Origin: Octopus vulgaris
Taxonomy: Eukaryota
Assembly: GCA_951406725.2 (NCBI GenBank)
Contig: OX597816.1
Location: 64,666,001-64,730,000 of the forward strand
Length of the DNA stretch: 64,000 nucleotides
Direction: 5' to 3'
In this document: positions 9,424 to 62,209 of the stretch, one piece after another
How the letters are laid out: each line of letters starts with the position of its first letter
How positions within the stretch are numbered: position 1 is the stretch's first letter
The notes under the pieces: generated by a model
Database searches by the model: none
What the model was told of the DNA's origin: nothing
Seen by the model: the letters and a program-made list of their open reading frames with translations, nothing else
Program-made: the position numbers and the translations under genes

Positions 9424-9499
<76 letters not shown>

Positions 9500-15938: not shown

Positions 15939-16712
15939 ATTTGGCACATATTCATATTCATATAGAAATTTACATATACATATACATACATATATATATA
16001 TACCCATATTATTATAAGCCAATATATGTATGCATCATTCTTGCATACATAATAAATATGTAGCTATATAAATTGCAGGAAATAAAATATCACGCGTTGT
16101 TGGAATCTTATTATTCTACGTTAATACTTTAGATAGTAAATCATTTGATTTTGATATAACATTCTCCGGGGGACTTCCTACAGTTATGCACTCAAAGTCA
16201 TACTGCAGATTTTCGTATGCAGTAAAGCTCCAACATTGCCAATTCCCTAGCGTTTGCATTTTTCGTTCCAAGTGCAAAAGAATTTTAAAGTAGAGAGATC
16301 CATTGTATATTATCGGCTTACGAGATAAATATTTTCTGCTTCATTCCTTCAAATTCAAATACTTTTCTTTGATTCTTGTAATGGCATTAACCTGTCGATG
16401 TTCAAAATTACTTGGTTTATCATTGCTCCGAGTTCGAATAATCTATGGTGTCGACTTTTCTCATGAGTTCTATTTCAATAAAAAGAGAATAATGCAATGA
16501 AATTTACTCTTGAGTTTCGGCGAAGGCAAACCTTGTTATTAAGCGTGTATTTCTTATCAAAGTTGAGGACTTGTGCGTAAGTTAATGGATATTTGATAGT
16601 AGCTATTAAGTAGTTGTTGCAGCTTTTGTATAGCCCCAACTCGATGTGATCGTATATTCTTCTGGCTATGTCACACAGATAGTAGGGCAATGACCTGACA
16701 CAAACATAAATC

Positions 16713-17125
16713 GGCGAGCTGGCAGAAACGTTAGCACGCCAGGCGAAATGCTTAGCAGTATTTCGTCTGCCGTTACGTTCTGAGTTCAAATTCCGCCGAG
16801 ATCGATTTTGCCTTTCATCCTTTCGAGGTCGATAAATTAAGTACCAGTTACGCACTGGGGTCGATGTAATCGGCTTAATCCGTTTGTCTGTCCTTGTTTG
16901 TCCCCTTCTGTGTTTAGCCCCTTATGGGTAGTAAAGAAATAGGTATTTCGTCTGTCGCTACGTTCTGAGTTCTAGTTCTGCCGAGGTCAACTTTGCCTTT
17001 CATCCTTTCGGGGTCGATAAATTAAGTACCAGTTACGCACTGGGGTCGATGTAATCGACTTAATCCCTCTGTCTGTCCTTGTCTGTCCCCTCTATGTTTA
17101 GCCCATTGTGGGCAATAAAGAAATA
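16713..17125 (+). mobile_element. tRNA-derived SINE family B (Meta/MESC-like centre), head-to-tail dimer
   Basis: GGCGAGCTGGCAGAA head, B box GAGTTCAAATTCC, central GCCTTTCATCCTTTCGGGGTCGATAAATTAAGTACCAG; TSD ACAAACATAAAT. Confidence 0.85.
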
Positions 17126-17237
17126 ACAAACATAAATGTGTTCTGCCAGCTATATCATGCTTCAGCCTAGCTTAAGAGCATACTTGACACCAGACTTGAA
17201 GTTATGGAACTTATGACAGGGTGAGAAACATGACATA

Positions 17238-17385
17238 GCATTGCGATGTTCGTCTACCCTTATTTTGAGAGGGCTGCATGTTTCGCCTTTGTATAACCTA
17301 CCACAGCTGCATGGGATGGAGTGTACACAGTGTTTGGTGATATTCTCTTCTATTGGTGGTTGTACTCGAGGGAGATGCTATTTAC
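17238..17385 (-). mobile_element. PLE GIY-YIG endonuclease fragment (same family as 57688-58372)
   Basis: Minus strand PRVQPPIEENITKHCVHSIPCSCGRLYKGETCSPLKIRVDEHRNA. Confidence 0.75.
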
Positions 17386-20014: not shown

Positions 20015-21245
20015 CCCAGAGCCCAAGGAGGTCGAGGCCTGATCCAATTTGAACTAGCTTACAAAACAACCACAATTGGACTGGCCAAATATCTCGAAAT
20101 ATCGAATGACTGGATGCTAAAGCTCGTGGAAAATCACGAGAGACGAAAGAAGCTTCATTCTATCATCAAGGAAAGCAAATAAATTTGCTATTGATCTCGT
20201 GCAGGATACCCAAACTGAACAACCCGAGGGAAGTACGGCAACTATTGTTGCAAAGAAGGTGAAAATGATGGCAATGAAAAAAGCGCACGAGCAATTGGCT
20301 GATAGGTGGGAGGAGAAACCTCTGCACGGCAAATATGTGACCCGCAGCAAACAAGCTGATGTTGACCAGAAGCAAACCCATCAGTGGCTACGGAGCTCAG
20401 GGCTAAAAGCAGAGAGCGAAGGTTTCATCCTGGCTGCTCAAGATCAAAGCCTATTAACCCGGAACTACCAGGCCAATGTGACGAAAAATGGGGCAGACCC
20501 AAAATGCCGATTCTGCAACGACATGATTGAAACAGTGGACCACCTAATCTCTGGATGTAAAGTCTTAGCACCAGTGGAGTATAAATTAAGACATGACAGA
20601 GTTGGCCAAAATCTCCACTGGCTAATAAGTCGGCATTACAATATCAAAACTGTCGACAAGTGGTATAATCACCACCCTGAGGCTGTAACTGAAGGAGAAA
20701 ATGTAACCATTCTGTGGGACTTTCCAGTACATACAGACCGAACCATCAAGGCCAATAAACCAGATATTGTTGTGAAAGACCAAAACAATAAAGTTTGCTT
20801 ATTGATCGACATGAGCATCCCCTGTGATCATAATATCTCAGCGAAAGAGTTTGACAAGCTCAGAAAATATAAAGACCTACTCATTGAAATTGAGAAAATG
20901 TGGCATCTCAAGGCGGTTACAATACCAGTGATCGTAGGAGCACTAGGAATGATCAAGAAGGGAACCGAAAATTATATGAGAATGATCCCTGGCTTACCAT
21001 CCCTGCAAGAAGTGCAAAAGATTGTCTTAACTGGTACATCACACGTATTGAGAAGAGCATTGTCGATGTGAGAACTGTTGCTGCTCATTTATTTTAATTT
21101 AACTTAAAAAAAAAGAAAAAAAAAATGAACGATGTACTGAGTTTGGTTTAATGGCCTACCATTGTATACTATGAGTTTCTTTGCCCTAGGAGTCGGGAAG
21201 ACACTCGGCAAGAAATGGAAGCAAATTTGAAAGAAGAAAAAAAAA

Positions 21246-21246
<1 letters not shown>
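20014..21246 (+). mobile_element. 5'-truncated R4/Dong-clade non-LTR retrotransposon in a (TAA)n tract
   Basis: PRAQGGRGL thumb motif, CCHC knuckle CRFC..ETVDHLISGC, RHD motif, PD-(D/E)xK endonuclease KPDIVV..LIDMS..K..KY; (TAA)n on both sides. Confidence 0.9.
20199..21071 (+). CDS. R4/Dong ORF C-terminal part (Zn knuckle + restriction-like endonuclease)
   Basis: 290-aa open frame with the motifs above; frameshift near 20180 links it to the upstream RT-thumb frame. Confidence 0.85.
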   Translation: MQDTQTEQPEGSTATIVAKKVKMMAMKKAHEQLADRWEEKPLHGKYVTRSKQADVDQKQTHQWLRSSGLKAESEGFILAAQDQSLLTRNYQANVTKNGADPKCRFCNDMIETVDHLISGCKVLAPVEYKLRHDRVGQNLHWLISRHYNIKTVDKWYNHHPEAVTEGENVTILWDFPVHTDRTIKANKPDIVVKDQNNKVCLLIDMSIPCDHNISAKEFDKLRKYKDLLIEIEKMWHLKAVTIPVIVGALGMIKKGTENYMRMIPGLPSLQEVQKIVLTGTSHVLRRALSM

Positions 21247-21303
<57 letters not shown>

Positions 21304-21304
<1 letters not shown>

Positions 21305-21480
21305 TACAACAACAACAACAACAACAAAAACATCGAAAAATATCTTAGGAATGAGAATCCATGTTCGAAATTTCCCCAAGGCACCTGATGAAGGCTGGAG
21401 AGTATATCAGCCGAAACTTTATGCTAACAACAAACAAGATGAGGACAAATATCCGTCAAATGTAAATAATGTAAATAATC
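21304..21480 (+). mobile_element. pseudo-LTR fragment of the PLE family at 57688-58372
   Basis: Matches 58232-58340 and the reverse complement of 57690-57800. Confidence 0.8.
21380..21426 (+). ncRNA. hammerhead motif with decayed 3' side
   Basis: CTGATGA-a-ggctg..cagcc-GAAA intact; helix III and stem I mutated relative to 58240-58285. Confidence 0.55.
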
Positions 21481-28360: not shown

Positions 28361-28946
28361 GGGTATGATGTAATTGAAATGATTTCTGATTGCTATGTCC
28401 AGCAGATAGGCTTTCCGTAAGGGTTTTAATAATAATTCTTTGGTAGAGTCGGTAAAATATCAGTCGAATCGTTATATATTGTTCTGTATCTGAGACCAAT
28501 TTCATTATTTTGGCCAGCTTCTTTTTACTAATCGAGAAAACACAGAATCGATTAAGGAGTTTTGTTTTATCTCAGAACTCGTTCCCATGCATTTGTTTTC
28601 TCAATATCTGGAATACCTAATTTTTGTATGAAATGCTTGAGTCATATTGTTATGTATTTCGTTCCACAACTACGAAACCATTCCAACAGCGTAGTATTTG
28701 AACATATATAATCTTGTTCAGTATTGGGTTAATCAACACAATGGGAGTGAGACTTGTTTGAAACATATTCCACGCTAGTCTGCACACACGTACATATATA
28801 TATATATATATATATATACTTACATAAATACATACATGTATGTACACACATACATACATACATAAATACATACATACATGTATGTATGTATGTGAAGACG
28901 CATGGATTAGTAGTTAGGGCTTTCGGCTCGCGATTGTAATGTCGCT

Positions 28947-30850
28947 TTGGTCCACCGTTTCAACTTTGAACCAAGACCCCGCCGAGCCAACCTCACTCGG
29001 GCCGAATCCATTGCCCTTCGCCACCTCCGCCGACGTAATGACATTGTCATCAAACCGGCGGACAAAGGCGGGGCAGTGGTAGTGTGGCGCGCGGACCTAT
29101 ACAGGGAGGAAGCGCTCAACCAGCTTCAAAATCCCCTCTTCTATCGCCTCCTCCCCTCCGATCCCACCTCCTCCTACCAACAGCGAGTGTCCTCCACCAT
29201 CCGCGACCTCATCTCCTCCTCCGCTCTCCCCCCACCGCCACCAACCTCATCGTCCGCACACCCCGCACCTCCACCATCTACTTCCTTCCCAAGATCCATA
29301 AACCCTCTAATCCTGGCCGTCCCATAGTCTCTGCCTGTAATTGCCCCACTGAACTCATCTCCCTATACCTCGACCGCATCCTGTCCCCCTTAGTCGCAGC
29401 CCTCCCATCCCACATACACAACACCAACCACGCCCTCCGTCTCTTCAATTCCTTTTCCTTCCCTTCCAGCCCCTCACACCTCCTCTTCACTTTAGATGTA
29501 AAATCCCTGTACACAGTGATTCCCCACAATGACGGTCTCCTAGCCCTCCAACACTTCCTCGACCGTCGTCCCGACCCCACCCCTGGCACCCCCACCCTTC
29601 TCCGTTTGGCTGAGCTCGTCCTCACCCTAAATTGCTTCACGTTCGCCGGGGAAACGTACCAACAGAGGTCCGGGGTCGCGATGGGAACTAGGATGGGCCC
29701 CAATTTCGCCAATCTCTTTCTTGGCTACATTGAGGCCCAAGTGTTCTCCCAGTTCTCTGGGCCGACCCCCGAACTATACGGTCGCTATATCGACGACTGC
29801 GTAGGTGCCACCTCCCTTTCCCGTGAACTTCTCTGCCAATTCATCTCTTTCCTTTCCAACTTTCACCCCTCTCTTCAATTCACCTCCACCATCTCCAACA
29901 CCTCTGTCAACTTCCGTGACATCTCTCTCCGCATCGATCACCCCTCCAACTCTCTCACCACCACCGCCTTCTTTAAACCTACGGATTCCCACCTCTATCT
30001 CAACTTCTCTTCCTCCCACCCCTTCCACACCAAACGAGCCATCCCCTACTCCCAGTTCCTCCGCCTCCGACGTTTGTGCAGCCGCGACCAGGATTTCGAG
30101 ACCCAATCTCAATACCTGGCCCGCATGTTCAGACTCCGAGGTTACCCACCCATACTCCTCTCTGATGCCCTCACCCGCGCCCGTCGCATCGACCGCACTA
30201 CCGCCCTGTCTCCTTCCCCCCGCCCATCCCCCAACCGCACCCCCTTCCCCCTCCGTTTCCACCCCTCTACCCTACCCCTTCGTCGCAAGATACTACGTGC
30301 CTTCCGTCGCCTCCAGCTTGATCCCACCACCCGCCCCATTTTCCCTAACCCACCCCTGTCCTCCTTCAAACGAGCCCGCAATCTGCGTGACCTCCTGGTC
30401 CACAGCACCCTCTCTCCTTCCCCCTCAGCCCCACGCGGATCATTCCCTTGCTCTAGATCCCGCTGCAACACTTGCCCCTTCATCACCAACACCACCGCTG
30501 TCACCGGCTCCAACCAGCATACTGTACGCATTAGGCACTCTTTTACGTGCACCTCGTCTGGCCTTATTTACTGCATTAAATGCAACCTATGCGGGATGCT
30601 GTATGTAGGACAGACGGGACGCCGGTTGTCCGACCGATTCACAGAACATTTGAGGGACGTTCGCCTACACTCTTTTTCTCCCGTTGCACGCCACTTCCGC
30701 TCGGCCGGCCATTCCCTAGATGACATCTCAGTGTTTGGTCTCGCCCCCCACAATGGTCGCCCACTTTCCAGGCTCCACTTGGAGCAACGCTACATCTTCA
30801 CCCTACAAACTACTACCCCACACGGACTTAACACAGCCCCCTCCTCTTGA
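28947..30850 (+). pseudogene. PLE reverse transcriptase + GIY-YIG endonuclease, one frameshift in a C-run near 29230
   Basis: IKPADKGGAVVV, LPKIHK..GRPIVS, LDVKSLYT, GVAMGT, RYIDD, KPTD, IPYSQFLRLRR, Cys linker CSRSRCNTC (Neptune-like), LIYCIKC..LYVGQTGR..RFTEH..E..I..GLN. Confidence 0.95.
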
Positions 30851-30879
30851 GGTCCGCTTCTTCTTTTTTTTTTTCCCGG

Positions 30880-33540
30880 ATACACCACCCACACACACAC
30901 ACCTACCTACCTCCCACACGCCTGTTCACACACACACATACGTAGACCCATCTACGTACATACATTCACACATTTAATCACACACACTTATAGACATACA
31001 TGCACACACTAACATACAAACCAACATGCACATACACACACACATACATACATACACACACACATACATACTTACACACACACACACACACAGACATACA
31101 TACACACATACATACACACATACATACGCACATACATACACACACACTCACACACACACACCGCACGTACATACTTCACACACACACACCGCACGTACAT
31201 ACTTCACACACACACACATGCACACATACATGTAGGCACACACATACATACATACCCACACATGCACACCCTTACACTGAATGCACACACACATACACCT
31301 TTTTGCATCCAGGCAGCCCCCCCCCTCTTTTCTGCTTTCCTGTTTTGACTGATGGATCCTCGGTTCCCGCGTAGCGGGTCGTTCGAGGGCCTTTGCGCTC
31401 GCGCGCCTTGGCGCGCGCTGGGGGCTTGGTCGGCCCCATGGGCTTGCGTTGTATTGCTTGTGTGTTGTGTGCGTGAGCGCGCTTGTGTGTGTGTGTGCTT
31501 GCTTCGGATGTGCGCGTGCGTATGTATGCATACATACCCACACACTCGCATGCATCCCTACCCACATACATACACGCACACCTACTCACACACACACATA
31601 CACACACACACACATACCCGCATACACACACATACATACATACACACACATACCTACTTCAGACATACACACACACAGACAGACATACACCCATACACAC
31701 ACTCACACGCATACACTCACACGCATACACACACACACATACACACGCACACGTACACATACACACACACACACCTACATACATACATTACACTTGTATA
31801 CACACACACTTACATTCATACACACACACACCTACCTACACACACACACAAACACACACAGACACACACCCATACATACATACATCTACACACAAACGCC
31901 TACACACATACACACATACATAAACACACACACATACACATACACATACATACGCACACACACATATACTTATACACATGCACACACACACACATACATA
32001 CATACACCCATACACATACACACACACATACCTACATACTCCTATACGCACATACATACACACAGACATACACACATACACACTCACACAAACATACACA
32101 CACACATACTTACACACACACTCGCCTGCACGCGCACACACATGCATGACAAACACCCATACACTCACACTCACATACGCACACACCAACATAAACACGC
32201 ACACGCACACATACACCTACACTCCCACACACATACATACGCACCTACATACACACACGCACGCATACACACGCACACACACGCATACACACATACATTT
32301 CACACGTACACACACACCTACATACACATGCATACACACACACACACAAACATGCACGGACACACCCAGACATACATACATACACCTATATACACACGCC
32401 CACACACATACATACACACACATACATACACACACATACACGGACACACCCATACATACTTACATACATATACCTATACACACACGCCTACACACCTACA
32501 TACACACACATGCATACACACACACATGTACGCACATACACACACATATACGCACATACATATATACCCACACACATGCACACACACACATACGCACATG
32601 CATGCATGCATGCACACGCGCACACCTACACGCATACACACACACACACGCACGTACACATACATACATACACACACACATACATACACCCATACACATA
32701 CATGCATCCTACACACACATACATACACACTCACACATACATACACACACACACACTCACTCACACACCTGTATGTACGCGCACACACATGCACATACAC
32801 ACACTTCCACACACCCACACGTACATGCATACACACTCATACACATACACACACACACACACGGACATACATCTATGCACACACATATATACACACATAC
32901 TCACATACATTCATCGGACACACTGACACCCAGACATACACCCAGACACACTCACACATCCACACACATACATACTTACGCGCACACTCGCAGGCGCGCG
33001 CACACACGCGCTTGCGCCGGTTCGCGCACGCATACGCGCTGCATGCACCTCGCTCTTGGACCCGACGAGACCTCCCGCTCGTTCCTGGGACCGTCGCCTG
33101 TCGTTGGGTTCTCCCACGCCCGTCTCCGCGGGACCACTCAGCTGGAGTCCTTTTTCCTTACCCCCCCCTTTTTTGTTACACACGCGCACACATACATACA
33201 CCCACTCACACACACACATTGCTTAAATATATACATTACTCTTACACACATTCAAATCTACTCGCCATTAATACTACCACGACACTGGACACACACACAC
33301 ACTACTACTCAACACACGCTGGCACGCTACATACGCCCCCACCCCTTCCCCTCCCTCCCTTCCTACTTCCTTCATTGTCTTACTACTGACCACTTGTCTG
33401 TTGCCTACTACTGTTCGCCCTACCTCAAACGCCTACACACAGACGCACACACTAACACATACATATATTTTTTGTTTTTTTATCTCGCCTCACACACACA
33501 TACACACACGCACACGCACACACTCACACATACACACACA
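30880..33540. repeat. degenerate (CA)n/(CATA)n low-complexity tract in the PLE 3' UTR
   Basis: Directly visible; interrupted by two GC-rich islands. Confidence 0.95.
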
Positions 33541-33713
33541 TCTGTTGCGTTACCAACCCTGTCTCCACTCTTTTGGCTTTAAAAACCTACTTTGCTCTTG
33601 TTATCGTAAACTTCCGCCTTTCACCATGTGTACTTCGTAAACACCAGTCGTTTTTTTCTCCATCTCCTGTTGCCCACTTTGGGATCTTTCTTTCCTCTCT
33701 CTTCTTTCTTTAT

Positions 33714-33748
33714 GTTTCCGACGAAGAGCTCCGCTCGAAACGTCATAC
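33714..33748 (+). ncRNA. hammerhead motif of the Neptune PLE pseudo-LTR
   Basis: gttt-CCGACGA-a-gagc tcc gctc-GAAA-cg-TC-atac; GUC site, palindromic helix III ACGT. Confidence 0.7.
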
Positions 33749-33833
33749 CTTCCTGCTTCCATATTTCCTGAGCGCCTATTAATAATAATACTGTAATTGT
33801 TCCACTGTTTTTGTTTTTTTGTTTTCCCGTTTG

Positions 33834-55089: not shown

Positions 55090-56328
55090 GTCATCCTATC
55101 AGTTCTGTCCGATTTTACCTTGTATGAAATTGAATCAAATTTAAAAGTATCTTAGAATGTCTAACCGAATCAAAAATTATTTTTATGCATTTGTGTATAT
55201 TTAAACTAATTAAATATTATTTTACGGTATAATAGAATTAAAATTTCTTTGATTAAAACCCTTTCTAATATGGAAGAATTCTAATTACATTTGAGGCATA
55301 TAATGCTTTATAAGTACAAAAAAGGAAACTCTGCGGTTGAAGCGACTCGAAACATACACTCAGTTTATGGGAAAGAATGCTTGAATGAAAGAACTTGAAA
55401 AAGTTTGTTTGGAAAATTCAGAAGTGGAGATTTCAGCTGTGAAGATGAAGATCGAACAGGACATCGAGTTGAGTTTGAGACATTACTTGATGAAAATCCT
55501 GCATTATCGGTTGAAGAATTGGTAATAATGCTTAGTTCACACCATACAACTGTTCATTGTCATCTTCAACAACTTGGGAAGATATCTAAACTTGGAAAAT
55601 GGGTGTCTCATGAATTGTCCGAAAGCAACTGCAAATCCCAAGTTGACATCTGCTCTTCTCTTCATTCTCGCGATCTCATTTCACTCTTTTTGGATAGACT
55701 TATGACTGCTGACGAAAAATGGATCTTCTATCGAAATGTTTAACTTCGTAAACAGTGGAAAAGGGAAAAGGCTCAACTACAACCGAAAAGGGAACTTCAT
55801 GGAAAAAAGATTCTCTCTATCTGGCTGGATTGCAAAGGAGTAATTCCCTTTGAATTGCTACCACCTAATACAGCAATTAATGCTCAAGTCTACTGTCAGC
55901 ATTTAGAGCGTTTGAATCAAGCTTTGAAGGAAAAAAGACCCGCTTTAGTGAATCAAAAAGGAGTGATGTTTCATCAGGACAATGCCCGTCCCCACACCGC
56001 AAATATCACGAAAGATCGAAGAGCTTGGCTGGGAAAAAATTCCTCATCCACCTTATTCTCCCGACCTTGCTCCTTCAGACTACCATTTGTTACGTAGTTT
56101 ACAGAATCATTTGGGGGACATAACTTTCACAAGCCAGGAGGAGGTCGAAACTGACATTCCAGAGTTCTTCGCTTTGAAACCAAAAGAGTTTTACATTAAT
56201 GGGATTAAAAAGCTCGTAAATAGATGGAAGGAAATCATAGATAATCAGGGAAAGAACATCGATGGTTAAATTTGATCACTTGTTTTCTTTATTCAAAATT
56301 CGGACAGATCTTTTGGGATGACCTGATA
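55084..56328 (+). mobile_element. full-length mariner element with both TIRs
   Basis: TA-TCAGGTCATCC..TCTGTCCGA / TCGGACAGA..GGATGACCTGA-TA. Confidence 0.92.
55270..56269 (+). pseudogene. mariner DD34D transposase, disrupted
   Basis: WVSHEL (WVPHEL), TADEKW, HQDNARPH, YSPDLAPSDYHL; stops and frameshifts. Confidence 0.92.
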
Positions 56329-57329
56329 TATATATATATATATATGGGGTGGGGTGCGTATATACATATATATATATTTATATGCAGGTGTCTATGTGTC
56401 TGTGTGTCTCTCATCCACCGTTTGGAAATCGATGTTCTTTTGTTTACGTCACAGAAAGCTAACTGTTGAGCAAAAGATACCGATAGATTACGTACCAGAC
56501 ATGAAAAATAAGTGCCTGGCGGGATTTATTCAACTATGATCCTTGAAACGGTCCCACAATGAATGATACAATTGAAAGATATAAGATATGTATAAAAGCA
56601 GCAGACACAACCCGACGTTGAATTAATATATATGGAACTAAGAATAAAAAATGCTACATAGCAATTATATAAATGTGTGTGACAGTGTGAAGATAGAGCA
56701 ATTATAATCGTTTCACTAGATCTGTGATCAACATATTTTCATAATGGACATAAATGTAGACGTAGATTAATGTAGTGGTTTGGCGTTTAAGTTAACTTAG
56801 TATATAGAGAGAGGTATCACTTCATGTGTGAACTCTGTATGTAGTCTTATTACTTGGGAGTGAATGTAGCACGTATAGATAAGTTTGGTATGAGCCTATA
56901 TAGAGCTACGGAGTGTCTATATATATAAATGTTATATAGAGATGTGAGTGAGAGTTAACATATAACATACTTAGATGGTGAGCTTGTGAATATTCAATAT
57001 ATATACAGAATTAAACCGTAAGCGATGATATAACGCATATATATACATCCTTGACTTGTGTGTGCACATAAAGCCTGTATGCGTGTGGCTTGCTATTGTA
57101 AAATATAGATTTTATATTTTCACATGCAAGTTATATTCTCTTGGAAGAGAAAATAGAAAAACGTTTGTTTAAAATTTATCTAAAACCTTGAAATCTCCCA
57201 GAATAAGCATAGCTAATTATTTCCAAAGCTGTACAGCATTTCAGAATCATTTTCAATGATGTCGTTTTTAAACTCACTTTTAAATAAAATATCTGAATTC
57301 TTTAAATAACCTGCTGAGTGTAATATGAA

Positions 57330-57650
57330 GGCGCGCGGCGTAGTGGTTACGGCATTCGGCTCACGATCGTAAAAGTCAAGAGTTTAATTCCCGCCGACGC
57401 ATTGTGTCCTTGAGAAAGACGTTTGGTTACACGTTACTCTAGTTCACTCAGCTGGCAAAAATGAGTAGTACCTGTATTTCAAAGGGCCGGCCTTGTCACA
57501 CTCTGTGTCACGCTGAATCTCCCTGAGAACTCCGTTAAGCATACACGTGTGCATGGAGTGCTCAACGACTTGCACGTTAATTTCACAAGCAAGCTGTTCC
57601 GTTGATCGTATCAGCTGGGACCCTCGTCGTCCTAATCGACGGAGTTCTCC
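57330..57650 (+). mobile_element. tRNA-derived CORE-like SINE (related to family A head, different body)
   Basis: A box CGGCGTAGTGG, B-box-like GAGTTTAATTCCC, GTGTCCTTGAG..TTCACTCAGCTG. Confidence 0.75.
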
Positions 57651-57809
57651 ATTTAGAACACTGTACGTAATAAAGTGTATATAGAGTACATTATTTACAA
57701 TTGACGATATTTGTCCTCATCTTTTTTGTTCTTAACACATCGTTGGGGAAATTTCGAACCTGGGTTCTCATTCCTAAGGTATTTTCGATGTTGTTATTAC
57801 TATTATTAT

Positions 57810-57885
57810 TCAGGTCCCTGCCTGGAATCGAACTCGGAATCTTGGGGTTAGTAGCCCGCTCTCGTAACGACTACGCCATATGCCC
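57810..57885 (-). promoter_or_regulatory. tRNA-like internal Pol III promoter cassette within the PLE 3' UTR
   Basis: Minus strand GGGCATA-TGGCGTAGTCG (A box)..GGG-CTACTAA-CCC..GAGTTCGATTCC (B box). Confidence 0.7.
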
Positions 57886-58239
57886 AATTATGGAATGAAC
57901 CTTAGGGCTTATAAATCTAATAATTATCAATATCTCCCCGTGTCACAGCTTTGCGACGTTCCTCCACCCTTATTTTGAGGGGGCCGCATTTTTCGCCTTT
58001 GTACAACCTACCACAGCTGCATGGGATGGAGTACACGCAGTTCTTAGCCATATTCTCTTCTTTTGGTTGTTTTACCCAAAGGAGTTACTTGCGAAGTGTT
58101 GTATTACTTTTGAATACTGTCCTGATGTCATATCGGCCGCATATCTTTTGCCTCTGTTCAGAGAGGCCTTTCACAAAGCGTAGACAGACTGTGGACAGTT
58201 TTTCGGCTTCATCCTCTCTTTTCTTCATGATTTCCCCAA

Positions 58240-58285
58240 GACACCTGATGAAGGCTGGAGGGTATATCAGCAGAAACGTTGTGTT
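58240..58285 (+). ncRNA. type-I hammerhead motif in the PLE pseudo-LTR
   Basis: gacac-CTGATGA-a-ggctg gagggtatat cagca-GAAA-cg-TT-gtgtt. Confidence 0.72.
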
Positions 58286-59497
58286 AACAACAAACAAGAT
58301 GAGGACAAATATCCGTCAAATGTAAATAATGTAAATAATGTACATAATTCCTGAACTCTTAAATATAGAATTGTGTATATAGAGTGTATATAGACGAAAA
58401 TTAAGTAGTGTATGTTTCATAGGTTCGTAGTAACGATTTTTCGACAGTGTTTATTACGAAATTGTATCGTTGCTATTTAAATGTAATCTAATACATAATC
58501 CTCATATATTATTTGAATAAATGTAATTTAAATGTATGCATTTAATTGAAATAATGGAAATTAAGCAAATTGCTAAAAAAAAATGTGAATAAGAATATGT
58601 AACGCGTATATAACCATACATACAACACTATTGACGATGGCACAATAGAAAGCTTGCTAAACAGGAGATTATACATTCTTTATAAGCAGAGTAATAATTA
58701 ATTATAAATCTGTTATTGCCAGAACATATTTTTTTTCTGTGCCAGGTTCAAAAACATGTGAGGCCCCTACTTTTCTTCATACGCAATGTAATCATTAAAA
58801 TTCCAACTAAACAACGTATAGCGTATGTGTTGGTGGGAAGGAGTTGGTTTCGTGAATGCAGGTTGAAAACCAAAGAACAACAAGCACTAAAGTAAGCAAA
58901 CAGGCCTCCATAACTGTTAATGGTTACCCAATTCTAACCATCTATCATACAAATAACTATATTAAATATTCACGCAAAACTACTCATTATATTGGCAAAT
59001 AATTGACTGAGAACAAAACGACATCTCTATTCAAAATTTCATTGCTATCATGTTTCTAAAACGTTGTTCGGTTGTTTTATCCTTTTCCACTTGACATTTT
59101 TTTTTCCTTTTATGTTCAAAATATAAGCTGAAATATTCGACTTCATTGTATTATTTCTCCTAATTATGCGGTTTTGAATCTATAATGAGTAATTATAAGT
59201 GGAAGAGTTGTATCTTGCAATGAAATTACCAAGTAATAAAACAAGAAACATTTCATATGACAATACATGCCTGTTAGGCAAATTTAAATTACTCGATCAA
59301 GTTTTGTGCCACATGAGCAGATAATTTTATAGATATAACTGTTTTGTTTATTGAATACTTTTATTAAAAAACGTAGAGCGGCATCTTCTTCGTATTCCTC
59401 TCATTATGCCAACGACATCTATTTCAATACATAGATATCTAAGTCGCAATATACATTCATGCTTACATACACACATACATAAAAACACACACACATA

Positions 59498-61907: not shown

Positions 61908-62209
61908 ATCTTTGTTCCTTCTCGAGCCAAGCCTGGCTCATAAGGGCCGGTTTCCCGGTTTCCTTGGCCTATAGGTTCGCCATCTGGACGGGACGCCGGT
62001 CCGTTGCAGGTGAGCTGCAAGATGCAGGAGGAAAGAGTGAGAGAAAGTTTTGGCGAAAGAGTAAGCAGAAGTTCGCCATTACCTTCTGCCGGAGCAGCGT
62101 GGAGATTAAGTGTTTTGCCCATAAACACACACATCGCCTGGCCTGAGATTCGAACCCGCGATCTCTAGAGCGCGAGTTCGCTACTCTTACCACTAGGCCA
62201 AGTGCCTCC
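61908..62209 (-). mobile_element. tRNA-derived SINE family D
   Basis: Minus-strand A box TGGCCTAGTGG, B box GGTTCGAATCTC, CORE-like TTATGGGCAAAACACTTAA, tail GAAACCGG..ATGAGCCAGGCTTGGCTCG. Confidence 0.8.

Follow-up and report, generated by a model that had tools for sequence, protein, structure and literature searches.

The window analysed here is a stretch of 64,000 nucleotides of Octopus vulgaris DNA (contig OX597816.1), AT-rich animal DNA that is dense in repeats. Positions 57688-58372 hold a single insertion of a Penelope-type element (PLE), 685 bp long between the two copies of a 13-bp target-site duplication (TSD), GTGTATATAGAGT, at 57675-57687 and 58373-58385. This 13-mer occurs only these two times in the window on either strand, which bears out the first-pass annotation of one TSD-bounded PLE. 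That annotation also proposed an order along the coding strand of GIY-YIG endonuclease remnant, tRNA-like A and B boxes, TAA linker and pseudo-LTR (pLTR), and the same order was recovered on the minus strand: the truncated endonuclease (58229-57926), a spacer, a tRNA-derived head (57885-57813, plus 2 nt), a microsatellite linker (57810-57792) and the pLTR (57791-57688). The element presumably belongs with Penelope/Poseidon, a label that goes by motif likeness and not by a tree. The features of the insertion and of two related sequences in the window are as follows.

57675..57687, no strand: left copy of the TSD, 13 bp, repeated exactly at 58373-58385
57688..57791, minus strand: 3' pLTR with a 37-bp deletion at about 57744 and a candidate ATG at 57771, from alignment with two other pLTR copies
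57792..57810, minus strand: (AAT)n/(AAC)n microsatellite linker, from the sequence; a similar tract stands before the pLTR at 21248-21330
57811..57885, minus strand: tRNA-derived head, 73 nt in class-I register plus 2 nt, from conserved positions and box pattern
57886..57925, minus strand: 40-nt spacer from the endonuclease break to the head, from inverted repeat, fold and control 40-mers
57926..58229, minus strand: PLE ORF remnant, consisting of linker and N-terminal half of the GIY-YIG endonuclease, from tblastn with P0002-P0004 and alignment
58230..58372, plus strand: inverted 5'-truncated pLTR piece with a minimal hammerhead and a tail of about 31 nt, from pLTR alignment and motif parsing
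58373..58385, no strand: right copy of the TSD, an exact repeat of the left copy
21304..21479, plus strand: second copy of linker and pLTR, with a hammerhead and without a head, from alignment
17231..17374, minus strand: endonuclease fragment standing alone, from the same PLE family, with 83% identity to 57941-58084

Hallmarks of PLE transposition are present in the insertion: an inverted 5'-truncated copy, a tail at one end and a TSD. An inverted copy, a 30-40-bp tail at one end and a TSD make up the PLE signature (PMC8557442), and inversion and tail have been tied to two internal reverse-transcription starts (PMC11167929). The terminal repeats of the octopus insertion are inverted pLTR pieces, the 3' pLTR and the inverted copy being identical in 53 of 58 columns; the inverted piece is 40 nt longer, with 9 nt of extra repeat unit and the tail of about 31 nt. 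The insertion is 5'-truncated and the reverse transcriptase core is absent, and a related protein, P0003, reaches further upstream, into a region with PF26215. With the TSD, the inverted pLTR and the tail all in place, PLE transposition most likely brought in the whole unit and the head with it, barring a later addition of the head. The TSD encloses the endonuclease and the inversion, and the copy does not begin at the head.

The endonuclease remnant is 59% identical to the PLE protein P0002 over 58229-57926 (tblastn, E 1e-33) and 59-78% identical across the three PLE proteins P0002-P0004. P0004 falls with eukaryotic GIY-YIG clusters (score 0.96), in which the Pfam GIY-YIG family is found on 17-30% of the members; the Pfam search itself did not call GIY-YIG. 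A GIY-YIG remnant is present as first annotated, but with one internal stop and with the C-terminal 70 or so codons missing relative to the end of P0004, and it is separated from the head by a 40-nt non-coding spacer. Two blocks of this spacer (57886-57925), 8 nt and 7 nt long, are complementary, in permuted order, to the part of the pLTR that immediately follows the linker. An 8-bp stem around head and linker appears in the centroid fold, and over its full length the region is no more stably folded than shuffled sequence (z +0.81). Among 12,792 overlapping control 40-mers, 30 equal the complementary coverage of the spacer, 13 of them being the element's own copies. The spacer may belong to a stem that natively surrounds the head, or it may be a patch templated where endonuclease and head were joined. 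The latter would allow for a head-started unit and a template switch, and the insertion may even be such a unit, joined through this patchwork to an endonuclease fragment.

The cassette had been placed upstream of a ribozyme repeat, and this is where the first-pass annotation fails: the 37-bp deletion in the 3' pLTR behind the head takes out the entire hammerhead core. The inverted 5' piece, on the opposite strand, holds the sole hammerhead of the insertion, at 58245-58280. Motif parsing found minimal hammerheads, a class defined in PMC4209133, at 58245 and at 21385, with the core, a 6-bp stem II and a palindromic stem III, each of them mutated. The one at 58245, with a predicted cut after 58280 and a palindromic AACGTT, has a mismatch at the base of stem II, and the one at 21385 has an intact stem II and mutated stems I and III. 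Rfam made no hammerhead call on the local stretches at either site, and the best 150 of its 334 matches on the whole window were swamped by microsatellites. With its hammerhead deleted, its endonuclease broken and its A box mutated, the copy at 57688-58372 is a dead composite.

The linker and pLTR were said to recur at 21304, and alignment confirms this for 21304-21479, with 42 of 49 and 104 of 110 aligned columns identical; the tRNA head, on the other hand, is absent there. The pLTR copies are 86-95% identical to one another (about 5-14% different). Upstream of the pLTR at 21304 are (AAT)19, a 5'-truncated LINE at 20015-21247, (AAT)12 and unrelated DNA, such that the LINE sits in the TAA tract. 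One of the two window copies that reach the linker has a head. The 21304 copy may simply be truncated within the microsatellite; being headless, it was rejected as evidence for the head. It does have the microsatellite linker in common with the head-bearing copy, so the linker is not a private SINE tail.

The LINE itself (plus strand), which we take to be Dong/R4-like, contains the end of an ORF (316 aa) and a zf-RVT match that is weak and falls short of the curated cut-off (E 8e-4). Its position in the (AAT)n linker of the second pLTR copy suggests that LINEs which target TAA use the linker of the PLE as a landing pad.

The head at 57885-57813 fits class-I tRNA numbering without gaps and keeps 22 of 24 conserved tRNA positions, with an A box at 57878-57868, in which G18 is changed to C, and a B box at 57833-57825. 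A loose A/B-box pattern occurs at 2 sites in the window versus 0.05 per shuffle (100 shuffles), and only three other window positions score at least 22 on the conserved tRNA positions, all of them SINE heads. A functional tRNA gene is ruled out, since ARAGORN called none, Rfam had no match on the stretch, no more than 9 of the 21 cloverleaf pairs can be made (12 if the D-stem register is set generously), and the head folds worse than 196 of 200 shuffles (z +1.57). When the head alone was compared with phages and plasmids, seven weak phage matches were returned, four of them over tRNA genes of mixed types, and no parent tRNA was identified; an origin from Arg(ACG) is presumed from likeness.

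The loss of stems exceeds the divergence of the pLTR (P=0.01 for 12 or fewer of 21 pairs at a per-pair survival of 0.81). The pLTR copies are still close to one another, yet the stems are gone and the promoter positions kept, which argues that the head was a promoter before this insertion. A kept promoter with a lost fold is, at the sequence level, the pattern of SINE heads and of TRIMp3, where promoter motifs are conserved and the RNA fold is lost (PMC10886601), and it rules out a fresh tRNA pseudogene. That said, one would expect decay of this promoter type just as much in an independent SINE head.

The claim that the cassette has neither a SINE body nor a TSD of its own has held up. Behind the head there is no body, only linker and pLTR, and nothing beyond the 5-mer ATAAT flanks it as a repeat. 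The head is in the sense orientation of the element, and the 3' part joined to it is the PLE pLTR, that is, the 3' end common to the autonomous partner. On its 5' side there is a single AAT unit, whereas the LINE at 20015 is flanked by (AAT)n on both sides. Five other tRNA-like heads in the window match it in 35-50 of about 75 columns, and four of these (9499, 5272, 57325 and 62207) continue into non-microsatellite bodies, as judged by inspection of their 3' sequence. Within the window there is no second DNA copy of the head and no copy that starts at it. Derivation from the neighbouring SINE at 57325 was rejected, with 41 of 79 columns matching and the SINE on the opposite strand.

The tRNA-headed SINE copies of the window lie at 57325-57655, 5272, 9499 and 28890 on the plus strand and at 62207 on the minus strand, most of them with visible bodies, and about 20 bp separate the end of the 57325 copy from the PLE insertion that follows it. 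They presumably resemble octopus families. Another SINE, with a longer spacing from A box to B box, is found at 16710-17120 and at about 34901, both on the minus strand, and the body of the former has an internal duplication.

The candidate ATG at 57771 lies about 40 nt downstream of the head, and its frame is open through the hammerhead in both hammerhead-bearing copies. This open frame suggests that in the octopus PLE, as in that of Anolis, the end of the pLTR is the start of the ORF. When the open frame of the pLTR at 21304 was used as a query, one candidate came up, P0005 (dystrobrevin beta isoform X1, Octopus bimaculoides), in which residues 10-32 are the hammerhead-region peptide, 21 of 23 being identical to the pLTR frame at 58250. 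The first 32 or so residues of this protein model come from the repeat, by apparent exonisation or mis-annotation.

The residues of P0005 that precede the hammerhead peptide bear on the head. Residues 4-9, a stretch of six residues of one predicted protein that was picked post hoc, are identical at 4 of 6 positions to the translation of the head from its second base (about the first 18 nt). One of the two mismatches is a CpG-type change; the other, Gly9, is the residue expected from the tRNA-invariant G18. Of 127,960 window positions, the head start gives residues 3-9 their best score. For residues 4-9, 7 of 127,966 positions do at least as well, and three of the seven are other tRNA-SINE heads; 2 of 490 control hexapeptides reach the P0005 score within the cassette. 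For the full nine residues the head start ranks only ninth, and two of the five other tRNA-like heads (62207 and 5272) likewise need 2 base changes to encode the P0005 residues. The junction of head and pLTR in P0005 omits more than 100 nt, by deletion or splicing, and the model may join a SINE head and a pLTR that lie apart; residues 1-3 differ from the window flank right up to the first base of the head. P0005 thus gives modest support to a second locus at which a tRNA head stands 5' of this pLTR, there with another 5' flank.

The best explanation of the locus is that an octopus PLE family has a Pol III promoter as a fixed part of its pLTR and that PLE-mobilised RNAs of about 235-270 nt are the likely product, a reading that as a whole is evenly balanced between true and false. 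Its parts differ in strength. The head is probably a family-level part of the PLE pLTR, as judged from the features above; that it is also a working Pol III promoter is a prediction with about an even chance. It is a more tentative proposal, and on balance a doubtful one, that the captured promoter has spawned a true PLE-mobilised SINE of about 235-270 bp, composed of tRNA head, microsatellite, hammerhead and PLE priming site. Just as tentatively, the mobilising partner of such a SINE would be a PLE reverse transcriptase with its GIY-YIG endonuclease, identifiable by sequence. The combination of head, linker and pLTR is presumably a common octopus repeat, a point that is not counted as evidence.

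In intact members of the family, Pol III would start at the first G of the head and would read through the linker, the hammerhead and the PLE insertion-end sites without meeting a T4 stop. The PLE protein would then copy that RNA, giving insertions of about 235 bp, or about 270 bp with the tail, as SINE-like offspring of the PLE. TTTT is indeed absent from the cassette and from both other pLTR pieces; its absence was rejected as strong evidence, given that 28% of 275-nt window stretches (1415 of 5098) share it. The Anolis PLE protein depends on the opening 172 nt of the ORF, begins at an internal site and works on uncleaved RNA, and hammerhead activity is dispensable for it in vitro (PMC11167929). 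Since that protein needs RNA beyond the reverse-transcription start, tandem or tailed copies would, by analogy, be the main sources of such RNAs in octopus. Cleavage by the hammerhead would remove the promoter, as in the Schistosoma SINE-like element SMalpha, so that an uncleaved or hammerhead-less RNA would be the template that retains the head, and loss of the hammerhead need not block mobility. The short RNA first proposed, made up of tRNA head, hammerhead and PLE 3' end, is plausible for the family in light of P0005 and the lack of T4. It is impossible from this copy, whose hammerhead is deleted, and the copy, which includes sequence upstream of the head, is no plain Pol III-started copy.

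Two other accounts of the head, both unlikely, have to be weighed against promoter fixation. The head could be a passenger, present in the family consensus as a tRNA or SINE head that became fixed long ago in the 3' UTR of the PLE and is copied along with Pol II transcripts, without any head-started offspring. Such an origin would fit an insertion that holds endonuclease and spacer upstream of the head, an A box with the G18 change, and a window in which no copy begins at the head. It fits less well with the retention of 22 of 24 promoter positions while the stems were lost, or with residues 1-3 of P0005, which differ 5' of the head as if contexts vary, although these are three residues of a predicted model.

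It is similarly improbable that the head is a one-off, namely a head-only or 3'-deleted fragment of an independent tRNA SINE whose target was the TAA tract, either in this copy or in the one it directly came from, for example by way of TAA-targeting LINE machinery as at 20015-21247. SINEs make up 11.6% of the O. vulgaris genome (PMC13282606), the 21304 copy is headless with a LINE inserted in its TAA tract, and the window has no second DNA copy of the head. However, there is no TSD around the head beyond the 5-mer and no (AAT)n tract on its 5' side, and it has no body, unlike the heads at 9499, 5272, 57325 and 62207. The poor match to the five other window heads and the indication from P0005 of the same linkage at a second locus also speak against a one-off insertion.

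The first-pass annotation offered a further option, that the head is a promoter expressing the ORF of a downstream copy in a PLE tandem. This is very unlikely, as Pol III terminates at T runs and makes short uncapped RNAs, not mRNAs, and there is no downstream copy here. Pol III-type elements measure 100-1263 bp (PMC10886601), which is also against it, and what favours it is the placement of the head some 40 nt ahead of a candidate ATG whose frame is open in both hammerhead-bearing copies, together with the location of PLE promoters in the pLTR (PMC8557442, PMC6765202).

The octopus element shares with the canonical PLEs with a C-terminal endonuclease (Penelope/Poseidon, such as Anolis PAc; PMC11167929, PMC8557442, PMC4209133) the GIY-YIG domain at the end of the ORF, a pLTR with a minimal type I hammerhead, an inverted 5'-truncated copy, a 30-40-bp tail at one end and an AT-rich target; it differs from them by a tRNA-derived A/B-box head in the pLTR. 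The word "tRNA" has no occurrence in the main text of PMC4209133 and one, unrelated, in PMC8557442.

The statement that the partners of SINEs are mainly LINEs is fair, though it overlooks SMalpha (PMC6765202) and TRIMp3 (PMC10886601). SMalpha and Sj-alpha of Schistosoma are SINE-like and apparently transcribed by Pol III, with a promoter upstream of a type I hammerhead like that of the octopus cassette, and cleavage separates the promoter of SMalpha from the part that is copied (PMC6765202, PMC8490949). SMalpha is often tandem, and no PLE partner is named for it in the available text of these two papers, while the octopus hammerhead is of the minimal PLE type and its unit lies physically within a PLE with endonuclease, tail and inversion. 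The TRIMp3 elements (Cassandra, Helenus and Ajax; PMC10886601) likewise have a Pol III promoter, derived from a small RNA, captured in the terminal repeat of a retroelement. They are non-autonomous LTR-type elements with a PBS, a PPT and two direct LTRs that flank a short interior, and the octopus case is their counterpart in a PLE pLTR.

Animal non-LTR retrozymes are short non-coding hammerhead units, related to pLTRs, that have been proposed as non-autonomous PLE derivatives (PMC7229834; bioRxiv 10.64898/2026.07.22.740005), and PLE-dependent non-coding units have also been proposed for Chlamys (PMC8557442). Retrozymes are tandem repeats with a hammerhead in each unit, in contrast to the non-tandem, tRNA-headed octopus unit, and neither "tRNA" nor "promoter" occurs in the main text of the bioRxiv preprint. 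A tandem retrozyme was rejected for the octopus locus, where there are no tandem units and the hammerhead behind the head is deleted.

A tRNA-derived head in an octopus genome is, in itself, also a feature of the octopus SINEs OK, OR1 and OR2. Those, compared here by description only, have long bodies (Repbase lengths of about 465-1092 bp), and the PLE head is bodiless. The three families are said to go back to Ohshima and Okada in 1994, with OR1 and OR2 reportedly of tRNA-Arg origin.

The DNA collections searched beyond the window were prokaryotic genomes, phages and plasmids. GTDB genomes had no match to the head motif or the pLTR motif, and phages and plasmids had none to the whole insertion. 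Among proteins, the antisense frame across head and pLTR matched nothing in 5.8 billion sequences or 1.84 billion representatives, where octopus repeats seem scarce, and the sense frame gave no usable Atlas match. Six sequence motifs were not found in the full texts of papers, and motifs were likewise missing from the searchable supplements of PMC8557442, PMC13282606, PMC4209133, PMC8967140, PMC4758252 and PMC9115989. The open-access literature yielded neither a tRNA-headed pLTR nor a PLE-mobilised tRNA SINE, and the available text of PMC6962438, PMC3531059, PMC4824008 and PMC9115989 holds nothing specific to a tRNA-headed pLTR; one preprint (10.1101/596502) contains the phrase "non-autonomous Penelope". 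Repbase, Dfam or the O. vulgaris library of PMC13282606 may already contain a tRNA-headed pLTR.

Parasites of LINEs, namely SINEs, and a parasite group of LTR elements, TRIMp3, are known to have captured Pol III promoters. A clear example whose partner is a PLE would match both of these, completing the set for a third class of retrotransposons, and would serve as a model for the origin of hammerhead SINEs of the SMalpha type. It would also provide a natural minimal PLE substrate, for which reverse-transcription starts could be mapped from where many short copies end. Such copies would show whether hammerhead cleavage is selected against when the promoter must travel along, a matter left open by the in vitro work available in PMC11167929. 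Finally, part of the unclassified octopus SINEs could be accounted for in this way, as 893 of 900 recently active families are unclassified (PMC13282606). If the head is a one-off insertion, the locus is an ordinary decayed repeat.

The window also contains a second, unrelated PLE of about 5 kb at 28950-33820 on the plus strand, which we assume to be Neptune-like. Reverse transcriptase and GIY-YIG-like motifs are found in its 602-aa open frame (29042-30850), its 3' region is CA-rich and very long, and near 33718 lies a variant resembling a hammerhead, with a CCGACGA core. This PLE appears to interrupt the SINE head at 28890. Decayed mariner-like transposase sequence, judged by eye, lies closer to the insertion, at 55500-56300 on the plus strand.
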